Source: a virus (taxonomy: Duplodnaviria; Heunggongvirae; Uroviricota; Caudoviricetes). Taken from it: 45,246 bases of DNA. The notes beneath the pieces are model-generated. The model was not told the DNA's origin. It was given only the letters and a program-made list of their open reading frames with translations, and searched no databases. This document shows, piece by piece, positions 542 through 30,484 of this stretch. A program made the translations under genes and the position numbers. The DNA lies in the IMG/VR virus record IMGVR_UViG_2711768010_000017; one strand, given 5' to 3'. Position 1 is the stretch's first letter, and each line of letters begins with the position of its first letter.

Positions 542-1579
542 TTAACGCTTATCCGCCACCAGTTTGAGCGCGTGTTCCAGCACATTAATGTCTGCACCCG
601 CTTTATGGGCATTTTCACTTAAATAACGCCGCCACTGCCGCGCGCCAGGAATACCCTGGAACAAGCCCAACATATGCCGGGTAATATGGCCGAGATACGT
701 CCCCTGGCTGAGTTCACGCTCAATGTACGGATACATGGCGCGCACTACCGCCACCGGATCGGCATCGGTATCCGAGGAACCAAAGATCTCCCGGTCTACC
801 GCCGCCAGAATACCCGGATTCTGATACGCCTCGCGCCCGACCATCACGCCATCCATATGTTGCAGGTGTGCTTTGGCCTCTTCCAGCGACTTGATACCAC
901 CGTTAATCGACATTGTCAGATGCGGAAAGTCACGCTTCAGTTGATACACACGCGGATAATCGAGTGGCGGGATTTCACGGTTTTCTTTCGGGCTTAACCC
1001 CGAAAGCCAGGCTTTACGTGCGTGGATGATAAACATCTCACACTCGCCTTTGCCGGAAACGGTGTTGATGAAATCGCAGAGAAATTCATAGCTGTCCTGG
1101 TCATCGATGCCAATACGCGTTTTCACCGTCACTGGAATCGACACCACATCGCGCATCGCTTTCACGCAGTCGGCAACCAGCTGCGCATTACCCATCAGAC
1201 ACGCACCAAACATGCCGTTCTGCACCCGGTCAGACGGGCAGCCGACATTCAGGTTGATCTCATCATATCCACGCGCTTCTGCCAGCTTCGCACACTGTGC
1301 CAGCGCCGCCGGATCGCTACCGCCGAGTTGCAACGCTACCGGATGTTCTTCTTCACTGTACGCCAGGTAATCACCTTTACCGTGAATAATCGCCCCTGTG
1401 GTCACCATTTCGGTATACAGCAACGTATTGCGGGAAAGCAGACGCAAGAAATAGCGGCAATGTCTGTCCGTCCAGTCGAGCATAGGAGCAATGCTAAACC
1501 GAGAACTCCAGTAAGCGCCAGTTTTTTCAGGCATCACGCTGGTTTGATTAGTTTTCTGTGTTTCAGGATTATCGTGCAT
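542..1579 (-). CDS. dusA: tRNA-dihydrouridine synthase A
   Basis: 345-aa ORF with conserved Dus core ([26 protein letters not shown]); the prophage integrase starts 88 bp beyond its 5-prime end. Confidence 0.9.
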
Positions 1580-1667: not shown

Positions 1668-2765
1668 ATGGCGTACTATAACATAGAGAAACGACTAAAA
1701 TCCGATGGCACACCACGCTATCGCTGTAATGTGATTATCAAAGAAAAAGGTGTTATCACTTACAGGGAAAGCAAAACATTCCCTAAACATGCTCATGCCA
1801 AAACATGGGGCGCACAGAAAGTGATGGAATTAGATCTATATGGCATTCCATCATCAAATGCTGTTGACGGACTTACAGTCCGTGACTTACTACACAAATA
1901 TTTAAATGACCCAAATGCCGGAGGTAAAGCAGGCCGTACTAAAAGATATGTGCTGGAACTGCTTATGGATAGTGACATCTCCGCGATCAAACTATCTGAA
2001 CTGACAGAAAATGACGTAATTGAACATTGCAGGCTAAGAAACAACGCTGGTGCAGGCCCAGCAACAGTCAGCCACGATGTTAGTTATCTTGGCAGTGTTC
2101 TGGATGCGGCAAAACCTGTATACGGAATCAATTACACATCAAACCCGGCGAAAAGCGCTCGTCCATATCTACTTAAACTCGGTTTGATTGGTAAATCAAA
2201 CCGTCGTAATCGTAGACCAGCATCTGATGAACTGAACATGCTCATTGAAGGCCTTCAACAACGATCTACTCATAAATGCTCAAAAATTCCGTTCGTTGAT
2301 ATCCTCAAATTTTCTGTGTGGTCCTGTATGCGAATCGGAGAAGTATGCCGGTTACGATGGGAAGATCTCGACCAGGAACAAAAATCTATACTAGTAAGAG
2401 ACAGGAAAGATCCACGTAAAAAGGAAGGCAACCATATGAAAGTTGCCTTGCTTGGGGAAGCCTGGGATATCGTCCAGCGACAACCCAAAAAATCAGAATT
2501 CATTTTTCCATATAACAGCACTTCTGTTACCGCAGGATTTCAGAGGGTAAGAAGCAAATTAGGTATTAAAGATCTGAGATACCATGATTTGCGTAGAGAA
2601 GGGGCAAGTCGCTTATTTGAGGCTGGTTTTAGTATTGAGGAAGTCGCTCAGGTTACAGGGCATCGTTCATTAAACGTGCTATGGCAGGTATATACCGAAC
2701 TGTATCCGAAATCTTTACATAATCGTTTTGAAGAACTCCAAAGGAGCAGAAATAAGACCTCTTGA
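1668..2765 (+). CDS. int: Tyrosine integrase of the dusA-targeting family
   Basis: 365-aa ORF with ATG preceded by GAGG RBS; C-terminal catalytic region HDLRREGASRLFEAGFSIEEVAQVTGHRSLNVLWQVY with R/H/R/Y-type signature; sits next to dusA 5-prime end. Confidence 0.85.
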   Translation: MAYYNIEKRLKSDGTPRYRCNVIIKEKGVITYRESKTFPKHAHAKTWGAQKVMELDLYGIPSSNAVDGLTVRDLLHKYLNDPNAGGKAGRTKRYVLELLMDSDISAIKLSELTENDVIEHCRLRNNAGAGPATVSHDVSYLGSVLDAAKPVYGINYTSNPAKSARPYLLKLGLIGKSNRRNRRPASDELNMLIEGLQQRSTHKCSKIPFVDILKFSVWSCMRIGEVCRLRWEDLDQEQKSILVRDRKDPRKKEGNHMKVALLGEAWDIVQRQPKKSEFIFPYNSTSVTAGFQRVRSKLGIKDLRYHDLRREGASRLFEAGFSIEEVAQVTGHRSLNVLWQVYTELYPKSLHNRFEELQRSRNKTS

Positions 2766-2767
2766 CA

Positions 2768-2783
2768 CTGTTTATCCATACAG
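2768..2783. promoter_or_regulatory. LexA (SOS) box 1: CTGT-N8-ACAG
   Basis: CTGTTTATCCATACAG directly after a TTGACA -35 hexamer (2762-2767), upstream of the dinI-like gene. Confidence 0.65.
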
Positions 2784-2795
2784 TTAAAAATAATA

Positions 2796-2811
2796 CTGTA
2801 TACAAATACAG
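2796..2811. promoter_or_regulatory. LexA (SOS) box 2: CTGT-N8-ACAG
   Basis: CTGTATACAAATACAG, 15 bp upstream of the dinI-like ATG at 2826; close to the E. coli LexA box consensus. Confidence 0.7.
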
Positions 2812-2825
2812 TGTAGGGGACTTTT

Positions 2826-3074
2826 ATGCGTATTGAAATCTGCATAGCCAAAGAAAAAATGACTAAAATGCCAACCGGTGCTGTGGATGCGTTAAAGGAA
2901 GAATTAACCCGACGCATCAGTAAACGTTATGACGATGTAGAAGTGATCGTAAAAGCCACCAGCAACGATGGCCTTTCTGTTACGCGCACCGCTGATAAAG
3001 ATTCAGCTAAAACTTTTGTTCAGGAGACTCTGAAAGATACCTGGGAGTCTGCTGACGAGTGGTTTGTTCATTAA
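2826..3074 (+). CDS. DinI-like SOS-response protein (prophage copy)
   Basis: 82-aa product [11 protein letters not shown]...[11 protein letters not shown] resembles E. coli DinI in length and conserved C-terminal TWESADxWF motif; preceded by tandem LexA boxes. Confidence 0.85.
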
Positions 3075-3105
3075 GTTCATCATCTCTGGACACCATTCAC
3101 TTGTA

Positions 3106-3135
3106 TTGACTTTAAGATCATTAAATTGTAATAAT
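3106..3135 (+). promoter_or_regulatory. Candidate sigma70 promoter for the membrane-protein/RT operon
   Basis: TTGACT (3106-3111), 18-bp spacer, AATAAT (3130-3135); predicted start near 3142. Confidence 0.35.
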
Positions 3136-3141
3136 TCAAAG

Positions 3142-3280
3142 GGATGGGGCAGGTTTTTCCTCTTGCGCATGCAAGGGCGGCTCTGATAATGAACAGTAAT
3201 ATTTTACTGTTGAGCTTATGCTCACTGATCCTGCCGGGCAGGATGTTCAACGGTTCCAATATATCCTGCCCCTTCCGCTT
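3142..3280 (+). ncRNA. Structured 5-prime leader or candidate RT-associated ncRNA (several stem-loops)
   Basis: GGGGCAGG (3145-3152) complementary to CCTGCCCC (3265-3272); local hairpins cttgc-gcat-gcaag (3162-3175), aacagtaa-tatt-ttactgtt (3192-3211), and perfect palindrome atcctgcc-g-ggcaggat (3228-3244). Confidence 0.25.
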
Positions 3281-3296
3281 TTAAAAAGGATCTTTT

Positions 3297-3848
3297 ATGC
3301 ATGACAATATTTGGTTTACATATAAAGCACGTATCCAAGCGCACCATCGACTAGAATGGCTTGAAAAACACTCTCAATTTATCCTCGTTTGGTATGCTAT
3401 ATTGAGTGCGGTACTTTCAATTGTAACGTTGCGATTTCCAAAGGTTCTAGGAGATAATACAGATGTCGTTGCGGCGATACTTTCAGTGGCTCTACTGGGT
3501 ATTTCTCTGATCGTATCTAACCTAGATTTTCGTGGTCGAGCAATAGCCATGAGAAGGAATTATATTGCACTACAGCGACTCTATTTTGACATTACCACCA
3601 GTCAACAGTTATCTCTTGAACAGAAAGAAAAATATTTTAATTTGCTCAATGAGGTTGAGAATCACCGTGACATAGATGATAAAATTTCAAGGGTAACTCA
3701 AGTTGGACTTAAGACGAGGATCCCCACACAAAAAGAAAAAATAATTGTTATTTTATGGATATTACTTCGAATATTTATTACTGCCGCACTTTATATACTC
3801 CCATTAATATATCTTTGGATTGACTATGACTGCAAGCAGAATTTTTAA
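3297..3848 (+). CDS. Membrane protein with three predicted TM helices; candidate effector partner of the downstream RT
   Basis: 183-aa ORF with AAGGA RBS; hydrophobic segments FILVWYAILSAVLSIVTL, VVAAILSVALLGISLIVSNL and C-terminal IIVILWILLRIFITAALYILPLIYLWI; AT-rich; overlaps RT start by 23 nt. Confidence 0.7.
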   Translation: MHDNIWFTYKARIQAHHRLEWLEKHSQFILVWYAILSAVLSIVTLRFPKVLGDNTDVVAAILSVALLGISLIVSNLDFRGRAIAMRRNYIALQRLYFDITTSQQLSLEQKEKYFNLLNEVENHRDIDDKISRVTQVGLKTRIPTQKEKIIVILWILLRIFITAALYILPLIYLWIDYDCKQNF

Positions 3849-5196
3849 AAAGTCATTCTCGAAAAAAAATCTTCTAAAAGTATACTCTGAAAAAATCAAA
3901 GAATCAGGAGCGATTGGCATAGATCGGATTCGCCCATCAAAACTTGATTTGACAATAAAAAATGAGATCACTTTCATTTTTGAAAAGGTTAATTCTGGCA
4001 ATTACAAATTTACAGCATATAAAGAAAAATTAATATCTAAAGGCGCTAACTCTACACCCAGACAGATTTCCATACCAACTGCTAGGGACAGAATTACTCT
4101 TAGAGCTCTCTGTGAATGCCTTACGGAAATATATCCTAAGTCCAGATTAAAACTACCACATACAGTAATTGACTCATTGAAAGAAGCATTAAACAACAGT
4201 CTATATGCTGAATATGCAAAAATAGATCTTAAAAGTTTCTATCCTTCAATTGAACATAAATTGATAATTAATGCAATAAAAAATAAAATTAGAAAAAAAG
4301 AAATTAGACAGTTAATAACATCATCATTAATCGTGCCTACTGTAAGTGGAACCACAGGAAGCAAAGGTATCCCTAATAATACCAGAGGAGTACCTCAGGG
4401 ATTAGCGATATCAAACATTTTAGCTGAAATATCACTATCTAATTTCGATGATGAAATCAATAAAATGCATGACATATGGTACATGCGATACGTTGATGAC
4501 ATTCTTATTTTAACACCAAAATATCAAGCAACAAAAATAGCTTCTCATATCATTGATAAGCTTCAATCATTAAATTTAAACCCACATCCATTAAATGAAG
4601 AGAACTCAAAATCCAAAGTAGGCAGCTTGGATGAAAGTTTCAACTTTTTGGGCTACCACATAAAAAATCGAGAATTATTGATAAAACATGAGAGCATTCT
4701 TAGATTTGAGTCATCCTTAGCAAAAATTTTTACTGCATATAGACACGCTCTACTACAAGCTAAAAATAAGCGCGATAAAGAACGAGCTGTTGCATATTGT
4801 CAGTGGAAACTAAATCTTAGAATTACGGGATGTGTGTTTGAAGGTAAACGATTGGGATGGGTATCGTACTTCTCACAAATAACGTCAACAGCTCAACTTC
4901 GAGCTGTTAATCATACGATCAATAATCTTATCCGCCGATTCGGCCTTTCATCAGAAATAAAACCAAAGTCTTTGATTAAAACTTTCTATGAACTCCGCAG
5001 GGGTAGAGCGGAGACTTTTAAATACATACCTAACTTTGACAATCTACATATATCTCAGAAACGAGAAATTGTTTCTATGTGGATAGGGAAAGAGAATGAA
5101 AAAAAACTTAGCAATAGTGAAATAGAGAGAAAATTTAAATTTAAAATTGCGAAATCAGTAAAAGAGCTTGAAGAGGACATTTCAGGGATATCATAG
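3826..5196 (+). CDS. Reverse transcriptase (defence-associated type, retron-like or UG/Abi-like; family unassigned)
   Basis: RT motifs in order: GIDRIR, RQISIPTARDRITLRAL, KIDLKSFYPSIEH, GVPQGLAISNILAEI, YMRYVDDILIL (YxDD), FNFLGYHI; about 200-aa C-terminal extension; first ATG at 3826 (track start 3820 is TTG). Confidence 0.85.
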   Translation: MTASRIFKKSFSKKNLLKVYSEKIKESGAIGIDRIRPSKLDLTIKNEITFIFEKVNSGNYKFTAYKEKLISKGANSTPRQISIPTARDRITLRALCECLTEIYPKSRLKLPHTVIDSLKEALNNSLYAEYAKIDLKSFYPSIEHKLIINAIKNKIRKKEIRQLITSSLIVPTVSGTTGSKGIPNNTRGVPQGLAISNILAEISLSNFDDEINKMHDIWYMRYVDDILILTPKYQATKIASHIIDKLQSLNLNPHPLNEENSKSKVGSLDESFNFLGYHIKNRELLIKHESILRFESSLAKIFTAYRHALLQAKNKRDKERAVAYCQWKLNLRITGCVFEGKRLGWVSYFSQITSTAQLRAVNHTINNLIRRFGLSSEIKPKSLIKTFYELRRGRAETFKYIPNFDNLHISQKREIVSMWIGKENEKKLSNSEIERKFKFKIAKSVKELEEDISGIS

Positions 5197-5260
5197 ATAT
5201 GTAATCCATTAAATCCTTTATATATAAAGCAATAAACACACTATTTAAATTCACAAATCA

Positions 5261-5294
5261 GCCGCAGTATCCTGCCATGACAAGTTGCTGCGGC
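5261..5294. terminator. GC-rich hairpin between RT stop and tfa stop (convergent terminator candidate)
   Basis: gccgcag (5261-5267) pairs with ctgcggc (5288-5294); loop contains TATCCTGCC. Confidence 0.3.
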
Positions 5295-5308
5295 ATATCA
5301 CAAAACGA

Positions 5309-5893
5309 TTACTCCATAACAGGGACCGCAGGCCACTCAATATCAGGTGCAGTTGATGTATCAACACGGTTCAGCAATACCCGATACTTTTTCCATGCTT
5401 CCAGCAACGAGATTTCTTCCTCCGTTGCAATTTCCAGATCTGCAGCATCCTGAAGCGGCGCAATATGCTCACTGGCTACCTGCATCAGGTTGTTTTTTGT
5501 TTCTTCCGCCTCCCGGATCCGGAACAGTTTTTCTGCTTCCGTATCCTTCACCCAGGCTGTGCCGTTCCACTTCTGAAACTCCCCTTCCGGGGATAACCAG
5601 GTAACATTTTCCGGTAACGGACCGAGTTCAGAAATAAATAACGCGTCCCCTGACGCTACGTCATAAACCGTTTTACCCCGATGGTCTTCAACGAGATGCC
5701 ACGATGCCTCATCACTGTTGAAAACAGCCACAAAGCCAGCCGGAATATCTGGCGGTGCAATATAGGTACTGTTTGCTGGCAGACCTGTATGAGGCGGAAT
5801 ATATGCGTCACCTTCACCAATAAATTCATTAGTTCCGGTCAGCAGATTATAAATTTTTATGGTCCGTGGTTGTTCACTCATTCTGAATGCCAT
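5309..5893 (-). CDS. tfa: Tail fiber assembly protein
   Basis: 194-aa product with Tfa-like N-terminus [24 protein letters not shown]; immediately downstream of the side tail fiber gene. Confidence 0.85.
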
Positions 5894-8800
5894 TATGCAA
5901 GCCTCACAATATAGTTAAATGCGATGTTTTTGACGGTGTTTTCCGCGTTACCCGCAGCGTTAACGGTGATGGTATGTCCATGTGAACCAATCGCAACGGA
6001 GTGCGTATGAGCACCAATACCGACAGTATGCGCGTGTGCACCTGCAGATGCTGCTGTGCCGGACAGTGAGTGGCTATGATTACCATCTGTACTGGTATTC
6101 GCTAACCACCCCGTAGACATACCTACTGAGCCTTGTACACCCCAGGTATTTTGACCTGAGCTTGTATAACCATATTGATAAGTATCTTTAAAAACACTGG
6201 GGTTAAATCGACGGCCATCTCTATGGCTGTGATTACCAGCTGCATTCGTGCTGCCACTTAAACTATGGGTATGCGCACCAGTGTTATTCGTGGATTTAGT
6301 GCCGTAATCAAACGACGATGTGGTTTTCGTCCCCAAATCCGTACTGGATGCGCTGGCGCTGTGGGTATGCGATTTAATGCCGTCCTGTTCCTGAGACAAT
6401 ACGGCCCGACCACTGGCAGGTTTGCCCTTAATCGTCCAGCCACGCATATCAGGGATCACACCTGACGGATAAACGGCTGCAAGTTTCGGGTAAGCAGATT
6501 TGTCAAAAGTCTGTCCCTGCATCAGGGCATAACCAGACGGAACGGTATCTGATGGCCACGGGATTGGTGCACCGACTGGGTAGCTTTCTGGTGGAAGATT
6601 TTTCGAGGTATAAACTTCTGCCCAGTCTTCCTCAAAACCATAACCGTCTCTTGAAGAACGGTAGAACAGACCACCATTTCTGTAATGCGCCTTCATCTGC
6701 AAGGTCCGGCAACTTCCGACTCCGGTATAGAAGTTAACCAGAATATAGCTGTTGCCAGAGCGGGTGACATTGTAAGCGCCTGATTCGGCATTCCATGGAA
6801 CGCCACCATCCGCATCGGCATATGTATCCGTTGCCCTTCTGGCAAAAGCAGCCACATGCGCGGCGGTTAAAGTAATATCTTTGGAACCATCAAACTCAAC
6901 ACCAGAAACCAGTCTTGGCGTTTGCAGCTTTGTTGCTGTCAATGCGTTACCGTTCAGACTTGCAGACAGTTTGGTTCCAATAACCAGTTCGCCGGTTGCG
7001 TTATCAATAACAAACGGTCTTAATGTATTCCAGCCACCATAAACATCACCTTGATTGGTAAGCAGCAGGTAAGTTTTAGCGCCATCATTACGCCATAATG
7101 CACCATACTCCCCACCTATCATTCGAATCTGATTACCACCACGCGCTACAATTTCGTCTGTGGCAAAAAGTTTTTTGCACGACAAGTTATCGTTAACGAT
7201 TAACGAATGAGACTCATAAAAACCACGCCCACTCTTAAAATCAAGGATAACGTCCGCCGCGATACATTCAGTCGCCGGATTTGTTGCCCCAAACTTATAG
7301 GTCGTATCATTAACAACGAGATCAGCACCAGGTGCGGATATTGACAGGCCATCTTCGAGAAACGCAAAAACAGGGAAAGCAGCGCCATCAACATAGAACA
7401 CAGAGCGCAAATCATCGCCCTTATTACTCATCATTATTGAGTGGATGGCTCGTTCATTGTTTTGATATTGCCAGAACATTCCATAAGCATAACGCCCCCT
7501 GTCAGTCCAGCCACCAGGCATAACAAATCCGTTAAACTCGCAGTTATTCATCGGATCGCCTGCGATTCGCGTTGCCGTGGTGATAATGACCCTTGATGCC
7601 AGTTCGCTTACTGAGCCAGCAGAACGCATAACAACAACAGGGTAATATTTTCCAGATGTTGCACCTGCAGGAGCGTTAACCCGCACATAACGCATACCAC
7701 GCTTATCAGCAAAGTCTGTTTTACTGACCGCGTTAATGTTGTTCAGGAAGCGTCCCTTATCGGGTATATCAGCGCCGTTCTGGTCTTTCTGCAGACGTTT
7801 CTCAGCATTGTCATTGGCTGCTTTTACTGCCTTTGGCGTTGCCGCCAGCGTTTCAGACGTGCTATTAGTCGCACTACTGAGCTGTACTATCCCCTTTTTC
7901 GTCGTGCTCGCATCCTCAAGCGCCACGGCGGATGCAATATCCTCTGCACGTTTTGCCGCTGTCTCGGCGCGCGTTGCCGCGGATTCCGCCGTACTTTTGC
8001 TCTGTGCTGCCGCCGTCGCACTGCCAGCAGCCTCTGTCGCCTTCGTGGATGCTGTCGTGGCGCTGCCCTTCGCTGCGGACGCTTGTCTGGTCGCCTCATC
8101 TTTTGAAGCAGACGCCGATGATGCCGATGACGCCGCCGAACTGGCGGACGATGCGGCAGCCGTTTTTGAGGATTCTGCGCTGGTCTCCGACGCTTTCGCG
8201 TTCGTCTCCGATGTCTTCGCTGCGGAAGCAGACCTCGCTGCTGCACTGGCCTGTTCAGTGGCTTCGCCAGCCTTCGTTGTGGCTGTTGAAGCGGACGATG
8301 CGGCGCTTTCTGCCGATTTTCCGGCGGCGCTAGCACTGGCTGAGGCCTGCCCGGCACTTGTTGACGCTGCACTGGCAGACGACGCAGCCGCTGTTTTTGA
8401 GCCTGCTGCTGCGGAGGCACTCTGTGCTGCTGCCGTTTCAGAGGACTTAGCGTTTGTCTCAGACGTCTTTGCCGCCTTCGCGGAATTTCCTGCCGCCGTT
8501 GCCGAGGAAGCGGCATTACTGGCGCTCGAAGCTGCGCTCGTTTCTGATAATTTTGCCGCCTCTTTTGAAGCCGACGCATCTCTGGCTGAGGTGGCTGCTT
8601 CTGACGCTTTCGTGGTCGCGGTGGATGCAGAAGTGGCAGCTGATTGTTGTGACGCTGCCGCATTCGTTTCTGACGTTTTCGCCGCACCGGCACTGGTGGC
8701 CGCCGCGCTTTTTGAGGACTCTGCAGCGGCAGCACTTTTTGATGCTTCAGTGGCCTTTGCTGATGCCGTTCCTGCGCTGGAAGACGCAGACTGAGCCGAC

Positions 8801-9355: not shown

Positions 9356-10085
9356 TCAGAATTTATAACCGACACCCACGATGAAACCGTCAGTGCGCCA
9401 GTCGCCACTGCCGGAGCCTTCATAAGCAATATCAATGGCCACGGATTCGGTCGGGTTAAACTGCACGCCAGCTCCCCACGCCAGAGACGTGTTGCTGTGG
9501 CGACCGTCATCACTTCCGGTCAGCACATCGTGCGTTTTCCCCTTATTGTCAGTTACGCGGATATAATCCCCGGAAAAAGTCGACACACGGCTGTAAGCCA
9601 CACCCGCCATCGCATACGCGCTGAACCATTCATTCACGCGCACAGACGGCCCCGCCATCACGCTGAACCAGCGGTTACGAACGGAATCTTCATGCCAGCG
9701 GGTATCGCTGTAACGGGTCAGCTGGCGATTCTTGTCTCCTGCATAGCTGAATGACGTCACCANNNNNNNNNNNNNNNNNNNNNNNNNNNNNNNNNNNNNN
9801 NNNNNNNNNNNNNNNNNNNNNNNNNNNNNNNNNNNNNNNNNNNNNNNNNNNNNNNNNNNNNNNNNNNNNNNNNNNNNNNNNNNNNNNNNNNNNCCCCAGT
9901 GTGTCCGTAAACTCATAACGGTATTTCACGTTAATCCCGTTCAGATCATCACTGCCGGGAACGTTGGTCCGGGCATGAAGATACCCCGCGCTCAGCGTGG
10001 ACTGATGTTCAGACGCCCATGCAGGCGCACCGGATACGGCCAGACAAATGGCTGCGGACAAAATTGCTGCACAAACTTTACGCAT
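9356..10085 (-). CDS. lom: Lom/Ail/PagC-family outer membrane protein, interrupted by an assembly gap (N run 9763-9893)
   Basis: N-terminal signal peptide MRKVCAAILSAAICLAVSGAPAWA and C-terminal beta-barrel end GFIVGVGYKF; position between J and stf as in lambda. Confidence 0.7.
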
Positions 10086-30060: not shown

Positions 30061-30484
30061 TCAGTGACTTAAGGTTGTGATTCCGGAGGAGTCTTCAGAG
30101 AACCAGTAATTCTTCCTGGTAGCTTTCCTTTGTAGGTTATCCAAACATTCTGCGNNNNNNNNNNNNNNNNNNNNNNNNNNNNNNNNNNNNNNNNNNNNNN
30201 NNNNNNNNNNNNNNNNNNNNNNNNNNNNNNNNNNNNNNNNNNNNNNNNNNNNNNNNNNNNNNNNNNNNNNNNNNNNNNNNNNNNNNNNNNNNNNNNNNNN
30301 NNNNNNNNNNNNNNNNNNNNNNNNNNNNNNNNNNNNNNNNNNNNNNNNNNNNNNNNNNNNNNNNNNNNNNNNNNNNNNNNNNNNNNNNNNNNNNNNNNNN
30401 NNNNNNNNNNNNAAACCAGTACCCGGCACTACCTGCTGAGGTGCCATAGGCGACACCCGTTGTTAACTTATCCATGGATTTCAT
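30061..30484 (-). CDS. Holin, split by assembly gap (N run 30155-30412); dual-start MKSM motif
   Basis: [25 protein letters not shown]-terminus with GAGGTGG RBS; only the 24-codon N-terminal piece and a C-terminal piece are resolved. Confidence 0.5.

Follow-up and report, generated by a model that had tools for sequence, protein, structure and literature searches.

The plus-strand stretch 3142-3278 of a viral DNA segment of 45,246 nucleotides (the window, i.e. the whole stretch of DNA analyzed) was identified by sequence comparison, with high confidence, as the noncoding RNA (ncRNA) of a DRT10 anti-phage system (UG17, Eco3-like) that forms a cargo module in a dusA-integrated prophage. Its position, its fold, the A-B-A' pattern of its template loop, its homology, and the residues of its partner reverse transcriptase (RT) all correspond to those of an Eco3-like DRT10 ncRNA. 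The element is a rediscovery, since it has already been described; the only new point relative to the published work is a small one, namely a natural template allele with a concrete predicted product.

UG17 systems have been named DRT10, and their RT was found by RIP-seq to bind a 137-nt ncRNA located just upstream of the SLATT gene, the ncRNA, SLATT, and the RT each being required for defense (Tang et al. 2025, PMC12632851). The RT synthesizes protein-primed, tandem-repeat single-stranded DNA from a short template in the loop that follows SL5, using an A-B-A' arrangement and a telomerase-like cycle (PMC12632851), and Eco3DRT10 produces precise 9-nt repeats (Tang et al. 2025, PMC12632851). An independent study of another UG17-A system arrived at the same conclusions (Sanchez-Nieto et al. 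2026, bioRxiv 10.64898/2026.04.29.721553); that work added SbcB and a phage SSB-like trigger to the picture and reported rescue by the ncRNA supplied in trans, with regard to ncRNA accumulation. Cryo-EM revealed a single pseudo-symmetric ncRNA bound by two RTs (Ramirez et al. 2026, bioRxiv 10.64898/2026.06.29.735271), with template boundaries set by the distance from the SL5 and SL1 anchors, and Loop A of Eco3DRT10 being copied by the second RT monomer into a short abortive cDNA. ncRNA expression, RT binding, templating, and the requirement for defense are known only for Eco1, Eco2, and Eco3DRT10, for E3659, and for six other homologs, while the link from cDNA to SLATT activation is, in the literature, a proposed model only.

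Results

Partner genes and prophage setting

The two genes downstream of the RNA are intact and encode a SLATT_5 effector and a UG17 RT (Table 1), with the ncRNA directly upstream on the same strand, which identifies the locus as a DRT10 system. The RT scored 526 bits on RT_UG17, the next best models being Drt3a and other UG models with far lower scores. It contains the YVDD motif, R371, K385, Y388, and the C-terminal S456, all of which were invariant in 23 homologs, and it shows the same TTG/ATG start ambiguity as the Eco3DRT10 RT, which Tang et al. corrected. The original prediction had considered the order ncRNA, effector, RT to be unusual; it is in fact the canonical and predominant arrangement of DRT10, which three preprints from 2025-2026 describe as a tripartite system in the order ncRNA, SLATT, RT (PMC12632851; 10.64898/2026.04.29.721553; 10.64898/2026.06.29.735271).

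On the other side of the module are genes of the integrase end of the prophage, and past the RT gene there are prophage tail-fiber genes on the opposite strand; taken together, these neighbors place the module as defense cargo at the integrase end. A promoter-like site (TTGACA at 2762) overlaps with the LexA box that precedes the dinI-like gene (CTGTATACAAATACAG within TACTGTATACAAATACAGT, approximately 2796-2815). Because this box lies just upstream, SOS regulation of the dinI-like gene, the neighbor of the DRT10 module, is probable. Farther along the window, the tail-fiber assembly gene at 5309-5893 (-) contains a full-length match to the Rfam family IS009 (RF02111; 5352-5550, minus strand, 223.6 bits, E = 6e-56). 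Runs of N occupy 9763-9893, 15135, and 30155-30412.

Table 1 Features of the DRT10 locus and its surroundings in the window
Feature	Position	Strand	Remarks
dusA	542-1579	-	assigned from the identical layout in E. coli AR434
Tyrosine integrase gene	1668-2765		upstream of the module
dinI-like gene	2826-3074		immediately upstream of the module, behind a canonical LexA box
Putative ncRNA promoter (sigma-70 type)	3106-3135	+	-35 TTGACT (3106-3111), 18-nt spacer, extended -10 TGtAATAAT (3127-3135)
Predicted DRT10 (UG17) ncRNA, Eco3DRT10 ncRNA allele	3142-3278	+	137 nt; identity, fold z-score, covariation over 36 homologs
SL1, 5' arm	3142-3153	+	closing stem, partner 3265-3276; 9/11 pairs changed on both sides, 95.5% of cells paired
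SL2	3160-3177	+	CTCTTGC / GCAAGGG, loop GCAT; 3/7 pairs changed on both sides, 96.8% of cells paired
Loop A region	3178-3191	+	identical to Eco3; U43 = 3184, G44 = 3185 (Eco3 numbering)
SL3	3192-3211	+	AACAGTAA / TTACTGTT, 25% GC; 4/8 pairs changed on both sides, 99.2% of cells paired
SL4	3212-3223	+	GAGC / GCTC; 2/4 pairs changed on both sides, 92% of cells paired
SL5	3228-3244	+	perfect 17-nt palindrome ATCCTGCCgGGCAGGAT; 3 pairs changed on both sides, 99.1% of cells paired
Loop B (template loop)	3245-3264	+	positions map one-to-one to Eco3 numbering
Loop B, G104	3245	+	
Loop B, 5' linker	3246-3247	+	UU
Loop B, template A-B	3248-3256	+	CAAC-GGUUC
Loop B, alignment site A'	3257-3260	+	CAAU
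Loop B, 3' linker	3261-3264	+	AUAU
SL1, 3' arm	3265-3276	+	repeat partner of 3142-3153
SLATT_5 effector gene	3297-3848	+	183 aa, two TM; PADLOC RTasSLATT 1.5e-56, Pfam SLATT_5 1.3e-28
UG17 / DRT10 RT gene	3826-5196	+	456 aa from ATG 3826, overlaps the SLATT stop; PADLOC RT_UG17 1.1e-158

Promoter and transcript ends

The promoter matched the consensus at 10 of 12 positions in a consensus scan, with the TG extension, and ends 7 nt before G3142; its position puts the presumed transcription start at about this base. Enterobacterales homologs have a -35/-10 pair, with the -35 element TTGACT conserved, whose distance from the SL1 base is constant, and Pseudomonas homologs have a -10 element (TAGAAT/TAAGAT) at the same distance. 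The 3' end of the RNA is only 18 nt from the SLATT ATG, and no separate plus-strand promoter was found by scanning between 3135 and 3297; the mRNA of the SLATT-RT operon therefore probably starts at the ncRNA promoter and runs through the structure.

Fold of the RNA

The 137-nt stretch folded at -57.2 kcal/mol, compared to -38.9 +/- 4.0 kcal/mol for dinucleotide shuffles (z = -4.58; none of 200 shuffles was as good), into a 12-bp closing stem and four internal hairpins. The long-range repeat GGGGCAGG (3146-3153) / CCTGCCCC (3265-3272) was present and could be extended to 12-nt arms, GGATGGGGCAGG (3142-3153) and CCTGCCCCTTCC (3265-3276), which are 92% complementary. The 45-kb window contained only seven perfect hairpins (six distinct sites) with a stem of 8 bp or more and a loop no longer than 4 nt, and two of them are in this stretch. 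The GC contents of SL1 (75%) and SL3 (25%) match the published values. The structured leader with long-range and local inverted repeats that had been proposed for 3142-3280 was thus confirmed, its repeats and hairpins being located; the 3' end of the RNA is placed at about 3278 and not at the ATG at 3297. The minus strand folded with z = -4.89, so folding of the single sequence, which gives z of about -4.6 to -4.9 on either strand, cannot call the strand.

In the minimum free energy (MFE) fold, an additional helix pairs Loop A (3179-3185; GG..CUG) with Loop B (3251-3257), involving template bases (CGG..CC) that differ from Eco3. This helix was rejected: it is not in the Eco3 MFE fold, both loops occupy RT active sites in the published cryo-EM structures, and its bases are too conserved for covariation testing. 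A thermodynamic artefact is the probable explanation; were the helix real, the free RNA of this allele could sequester its template by means of it. A small open reading frame at 3144-3284 (46 aa) was also rejected as a gene because homologs carry indels of 1, 2, and 4 nt in the hairpin loops.

Covariation across homologous loci

Homologous loci were gathered via the RT from IMG/VR and GTDB genomes and anchored on the conserved motif AGGGYGG...CTRAYAA. The resulting 36 distinct sequences, from Escherichia, Xenorhabdus, Buttiauxella, Photorhabdus, Pseudomonas, Stutzerimonas, Stenotrophomonas, Bordetella, and IMG/VR viral contigs, were aligned with MAFFT, and the structure tested on this alignment consisted of the five helices (38 pairs) of the window's own fold. 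Standard pairs filled 96.7% of 1,244 cells, compared to 48-58% when the 3' partners were slid by 1-3 columns. Changes on both sides were seen at 21 of the 38 pairs (124 cells), and none of 500 shuffles reached such values. RNAalifold independently recovered four of the five helices (SL1, SL2, SL3, and SL5). The folding and covariance analysis that the original prediction had suggested as a check hence came out in its favor, the pairing being kept, with covariation, in the 36 homologs.

The alignment contained 113 G-U cells versus 18 A-C cells, and pairing was 96.7% on the plus strand and 89.1% on the minus strand; the excess of G-U over A-C indicates that the structure is that of a plus-strand RNA and not a DNA palindrome. 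One U-G pair in SL2 is invariant among the homologs, which likewise marks the plus strand. In SL5, the sequence and the loop length vary (ATCCTGCTTAGCAGGGT, ATCCCTTCGGGAT, ATCCCATTAGGGAT) while pairing is kept, and Loop A is strongly conserved (GGGCGGYUCUGAUAA).

Comparison with Eco3DRT10

The Eco3DRT10 plasmid and ncRNA sequences were taken from the supplement of Ramirez et al. 2026 (bioRxiv 10.64898/2026.06.29.735271), and the sequence of its RT, OKX54664, from that of Tang et al. 2025 (PMC12632851). In a base-by-base comparison, the window RNA and the Eco3DRT10 ncRNA were of equal length and identical at 134 of 137 positions, with no indels. The three differences are U25C (3166), U110C (3251), and A112G (3253), the first giving a C-G pair at the top of SL2 where Eco3 has U-G. 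From the promoter to early SLATT, nine differences were counted in the 399 nt compared, and the RT differed from OKX54664 at 8 of 399 compared residues (~98% identical). The published landmarks map exactly onto the window: U43/G44 to 3184/3185, G86 to 3227, G104 to 3245, U105-U106 to 3246-3247, C107 to 3248, C116 to 3257, and A120-U123 to 3261-3264. Eco3DRT10 (E. coli 703491) and the window have in common the five stem-loops, Loop A, the G86/G104 anchors, the linkers, A' (CAAU), the promoter, the spacing to the SLATT ATG, and the RT residues S456, R371, K385, and Y388. The gene identities, this near-identity to the Eco3DRT10 ncRNA, and the covariation together support the earlier reading of the stretch as a template ncRNA of the RT.

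Template loop and predicted repeat of this allele

The sequence CAA-CGGUUC-CAA begins 4 nt past SL5, and the pattern (U)CAA-B-(U)CAA was found at the same offset in 35 of the 36 homologs, with B variable. The extensions of A and A' covary among the homologs (CAAU/CAAU, CAAA/CAAA, UCAAAU/UCAAAU). The 9-nt template is CAACGGUUC in the window versus CAAUGAUUC in Eco3, two of the three differences between the RNAs falling inside it; from these two substitutions, the repeat unit predicted for this allele is 5'-GAACCGTTG-3' in place of GAATCATTG in Eco3. The match between A and A' is only 3 nt here and 4 nt in Eco3. A 3-nt match is the minimum reported to be generally sufficient, and mutations at the fourth A/A' base are tolerated (Tang et al. 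2025, PMC12632851). Given the 3-nt match, the processivity of this allele could be lower than that of Eco3.

Among the fetched loci (duplicate contig copies included), the window's CGG allele was counted 22 times and Eco3's TGA allele 5 times, and CAACGG is also the form found in other genera. The window allele being the commoner one and shared with other genera, the Eco3 template looks like a derived variant.

Distribution and related loci

Of 5,426 complete E. coli genomes, 188 contained the region, in every case on the chromosome and with 95-100% identity; no feature is annotated under it. A search of 2500-6000 against Rfam 15 (E <= 10) returned no family for the region of the RNA, where matches were only chance-level eukaryotic ones, that of 3142-3278 being to MEG8 (E = 2.2, 15 bits versus a gathering score of 70). 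Deposited phage genomes shared only the dinI part, and none of these records carried the DRT10 module. In the window, as in E. coli AR434, the prophage integrase adjoins dusA; in ETEC-2265 and 510016, the dinI-ncRNA-SLATT-RT cassette adjoins prfC with no integrase annotated between them. The cassette is thus located at at least two chromosomal sites.

Several related loci were altered or truncated. In E. coli 510016 (L077, 3222-4550), the DRT10 locus has the Eco3-type template allele and is intact apart from an IS1A insertion in the SLATT gene, which is a natural inactivation of the presumed toxic effector. In two IMG/VR contigs (L025 and L031), whose loci otherwise show 97-98% identity, stop codons break the RT frame beginning near residue 160; the cause may be a frameshift, decay of the copy, or a sequencing error. 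In four other IMG/VR contigs (L003, L010, L016, and L030), the contig boundary falls exactly at the SLATT start codon, and the predicted prophage ends exclude the ncRNA and its promoter.

Discussion

By homology to Eco3DRT10, we considered that the RNA of the window should function similarly. It would be transcribed from the promoter at 3106-3135, starting at about G3142, and a single RNA would scaffold two RT monomers. The monomer at Loop B would begin protein-primed synthesis (Ser456) opposite C116 (3257) and copy back to C107 (3248), where the SL5 anchor (G86/G104, RT R371), being a set distance away, would stop it, SL5 thus acting as the putative template boundary element. The 3' end of the cDNA would then re-anneal to A' (CAAU, 3257-3260) and the cycle would repeat, leading to kilobase-long single-stranded tandem repeats; the monomer at Loop A would make only a short abortive product. 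In this allele, realignment is expected to involve three Watson-Crick pairs and one dG-rU wobble, as A (CAAC) and A' (CAAU) differ at the fourth base.

Even if the RNA is that of DRT10, the template might be read in another register, in which GUUC at 3245-3248 would be A, AACG would be B, and GUUC at 3253-3256 would be A', giving an 8-nt repeat (CGTTGAAC) or a mixed, imprecise product. The GUUC...GUUC repeat is 4 nt long and thus longer than the 3-nt CAA...CAA of this allele, and imprecise repeat addition from cryptic re-annealing sites has been documented in Eco1DRT10 (PMC12632851). However, such a register needs G104-U106 to be copied, and these boundary bases are identical in the window and in Eco3, where C107 forms the 5' boundary, the SL5 anchor holds G104 locked, and the linker U105-U106 is not copied, its length and not its sequence setting the boundary (10.64898/2026.06.29.735271). 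Eco3 moreover contains a similar UUC...UUC 8-nt register and yet makes precise 9-nt repeats, and the Pseudomonas homologs lack the GUUC register but have UCAA...UCAA. We therefore regard both the 8-nt register and a mixed product as improbable.

Other explanations deny the template role itself. That the region is mainly a cis-regulatory 5' leader (an attenuator or processing site) limiting a toxic SLATT-RT operon would agree with the short distance to the SLATT ATG, with the single promoter upstream, and with a GC-rich SL1 followed by a U-rich run (CCGCUUUU); however, a scan found no terminator-like site after the RNA, and a leader leaves unexplained both the conserved A-B-A' pattern with its conserved loops and the published RT binding and templating by an RNA identical at 134 of 137 positions. 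A purely regulatory leader is thus very unlikely, although a cis-regulatory role in addition to the template role could exist. The original prediction had also allowed for a protein-binding operator, and a perfect 17-bp palindrome near a promoter, immediately downstream of a presumably LexA-regulated dinI gene, might suggest a phage or SOS-type repressor that binds the palindrome and inverted repeats as DNA operators. Yet the palindrome is ~90 nt downstream of the promoter, the G-U pairs favor a plus-strand RNA, and SL5 stays paired in the homologs but varies in sequence and loop length, which argues against an operator; in the published system, SL5 inversions that keep pairing retain defense while shuffling of SL5 abolishes function (10.64898/2026.06.29.735271). 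The operator reading was not supported and is highly improbable. A retron msr-msd, whose a1/a2 stem would be the long-range repeat, has hardly any credibility: there is a superficial likeness to the window RNA, retron RNAs also being structured, located beside a defense RT, and closed by terminal inverted repeats enclosing hairpins, and homologous RTs are called 'retron-type' in several database records. However, retron RTs belong to another clade, no retron RT model was among the 25 best matches listed for this UG17 RT, and no curated retron RNA family matched the region at E <= 10, only the chance-level match being returned. The homologous system yields protein-primed tandem repeats and not RNA-linked msDNA (PMC12632851), DRT10 having neither 2'-OH branch priming nor msDNA.

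The UG17-A ncRNA of Escherichia sp. E3659 (~143 nt; 10.64898/2026.04.29.721553) occurs in the same ncRNA-SLATT-RT order, is closed like the window's RNA by a basal SL1, which is needed for stability in E3659, and has a template loop in which two short direct repeats (ACU...ACU) flank the copied segment; it differs in sequence, in its template (ACUUAUUACU), and in its 7-nt AGTAATA repeat. DRT9 (UG28) and DRT2 (UG2) are, like DRT10, Class 2 UG RTs with an upstream structured ncRNA bearing a template, and the DRT9 ncRNA fold was reported to be similar to that of DRT10 (PMC12632851). DRT9, however, copies a conserved poly-U template into poly-dA, whereas Loop B of the window (GUUCAACGGUUCCAAUAUAU) has no U tract, and the window's RT gave 6.6e-20 on Drt9 compared to 1.1e-158 on UG17; DRT2 builds a gene by rolling-circle copying, and neither system has a SLATT effector in such an arrangement. 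Telomerase RNA works like that of DRT10 in that its template is short and internal, with an alignment segment (A') downstream of it and a structured boundary element on the 5' side (PMC12632851), but telomerase extends a chromosome end whereas DRT10 is protein-primed and uses two RTs per RNA, and no homology of the RNAs is claimed.

Near-identical E. coli DRT10 systems carry different templates, with two of the three RNA substitutions falling there, so the sequence of the repeat DNA itself might be under diversifying or tuning selection. We advance this idea only tentatively and consider it doubtful, the alternative being a template under no constraint. If such selection were operating, it could alter how SbcB, phage SSB-like triggers, or the SLATT effector handle the product, or it could alter processivity through the mismatch at the fourth A/A' base.

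The main value of the finding is one of annotation, as the RNA occurs without annotation in E. coli genomes. Reading of the raw sequence alone recovered, in a nearly base-exact manner, an RNA whose definition had needed RIP-seq, and the allele adds a natural template variant to a telomerase-like bacterial RT system.
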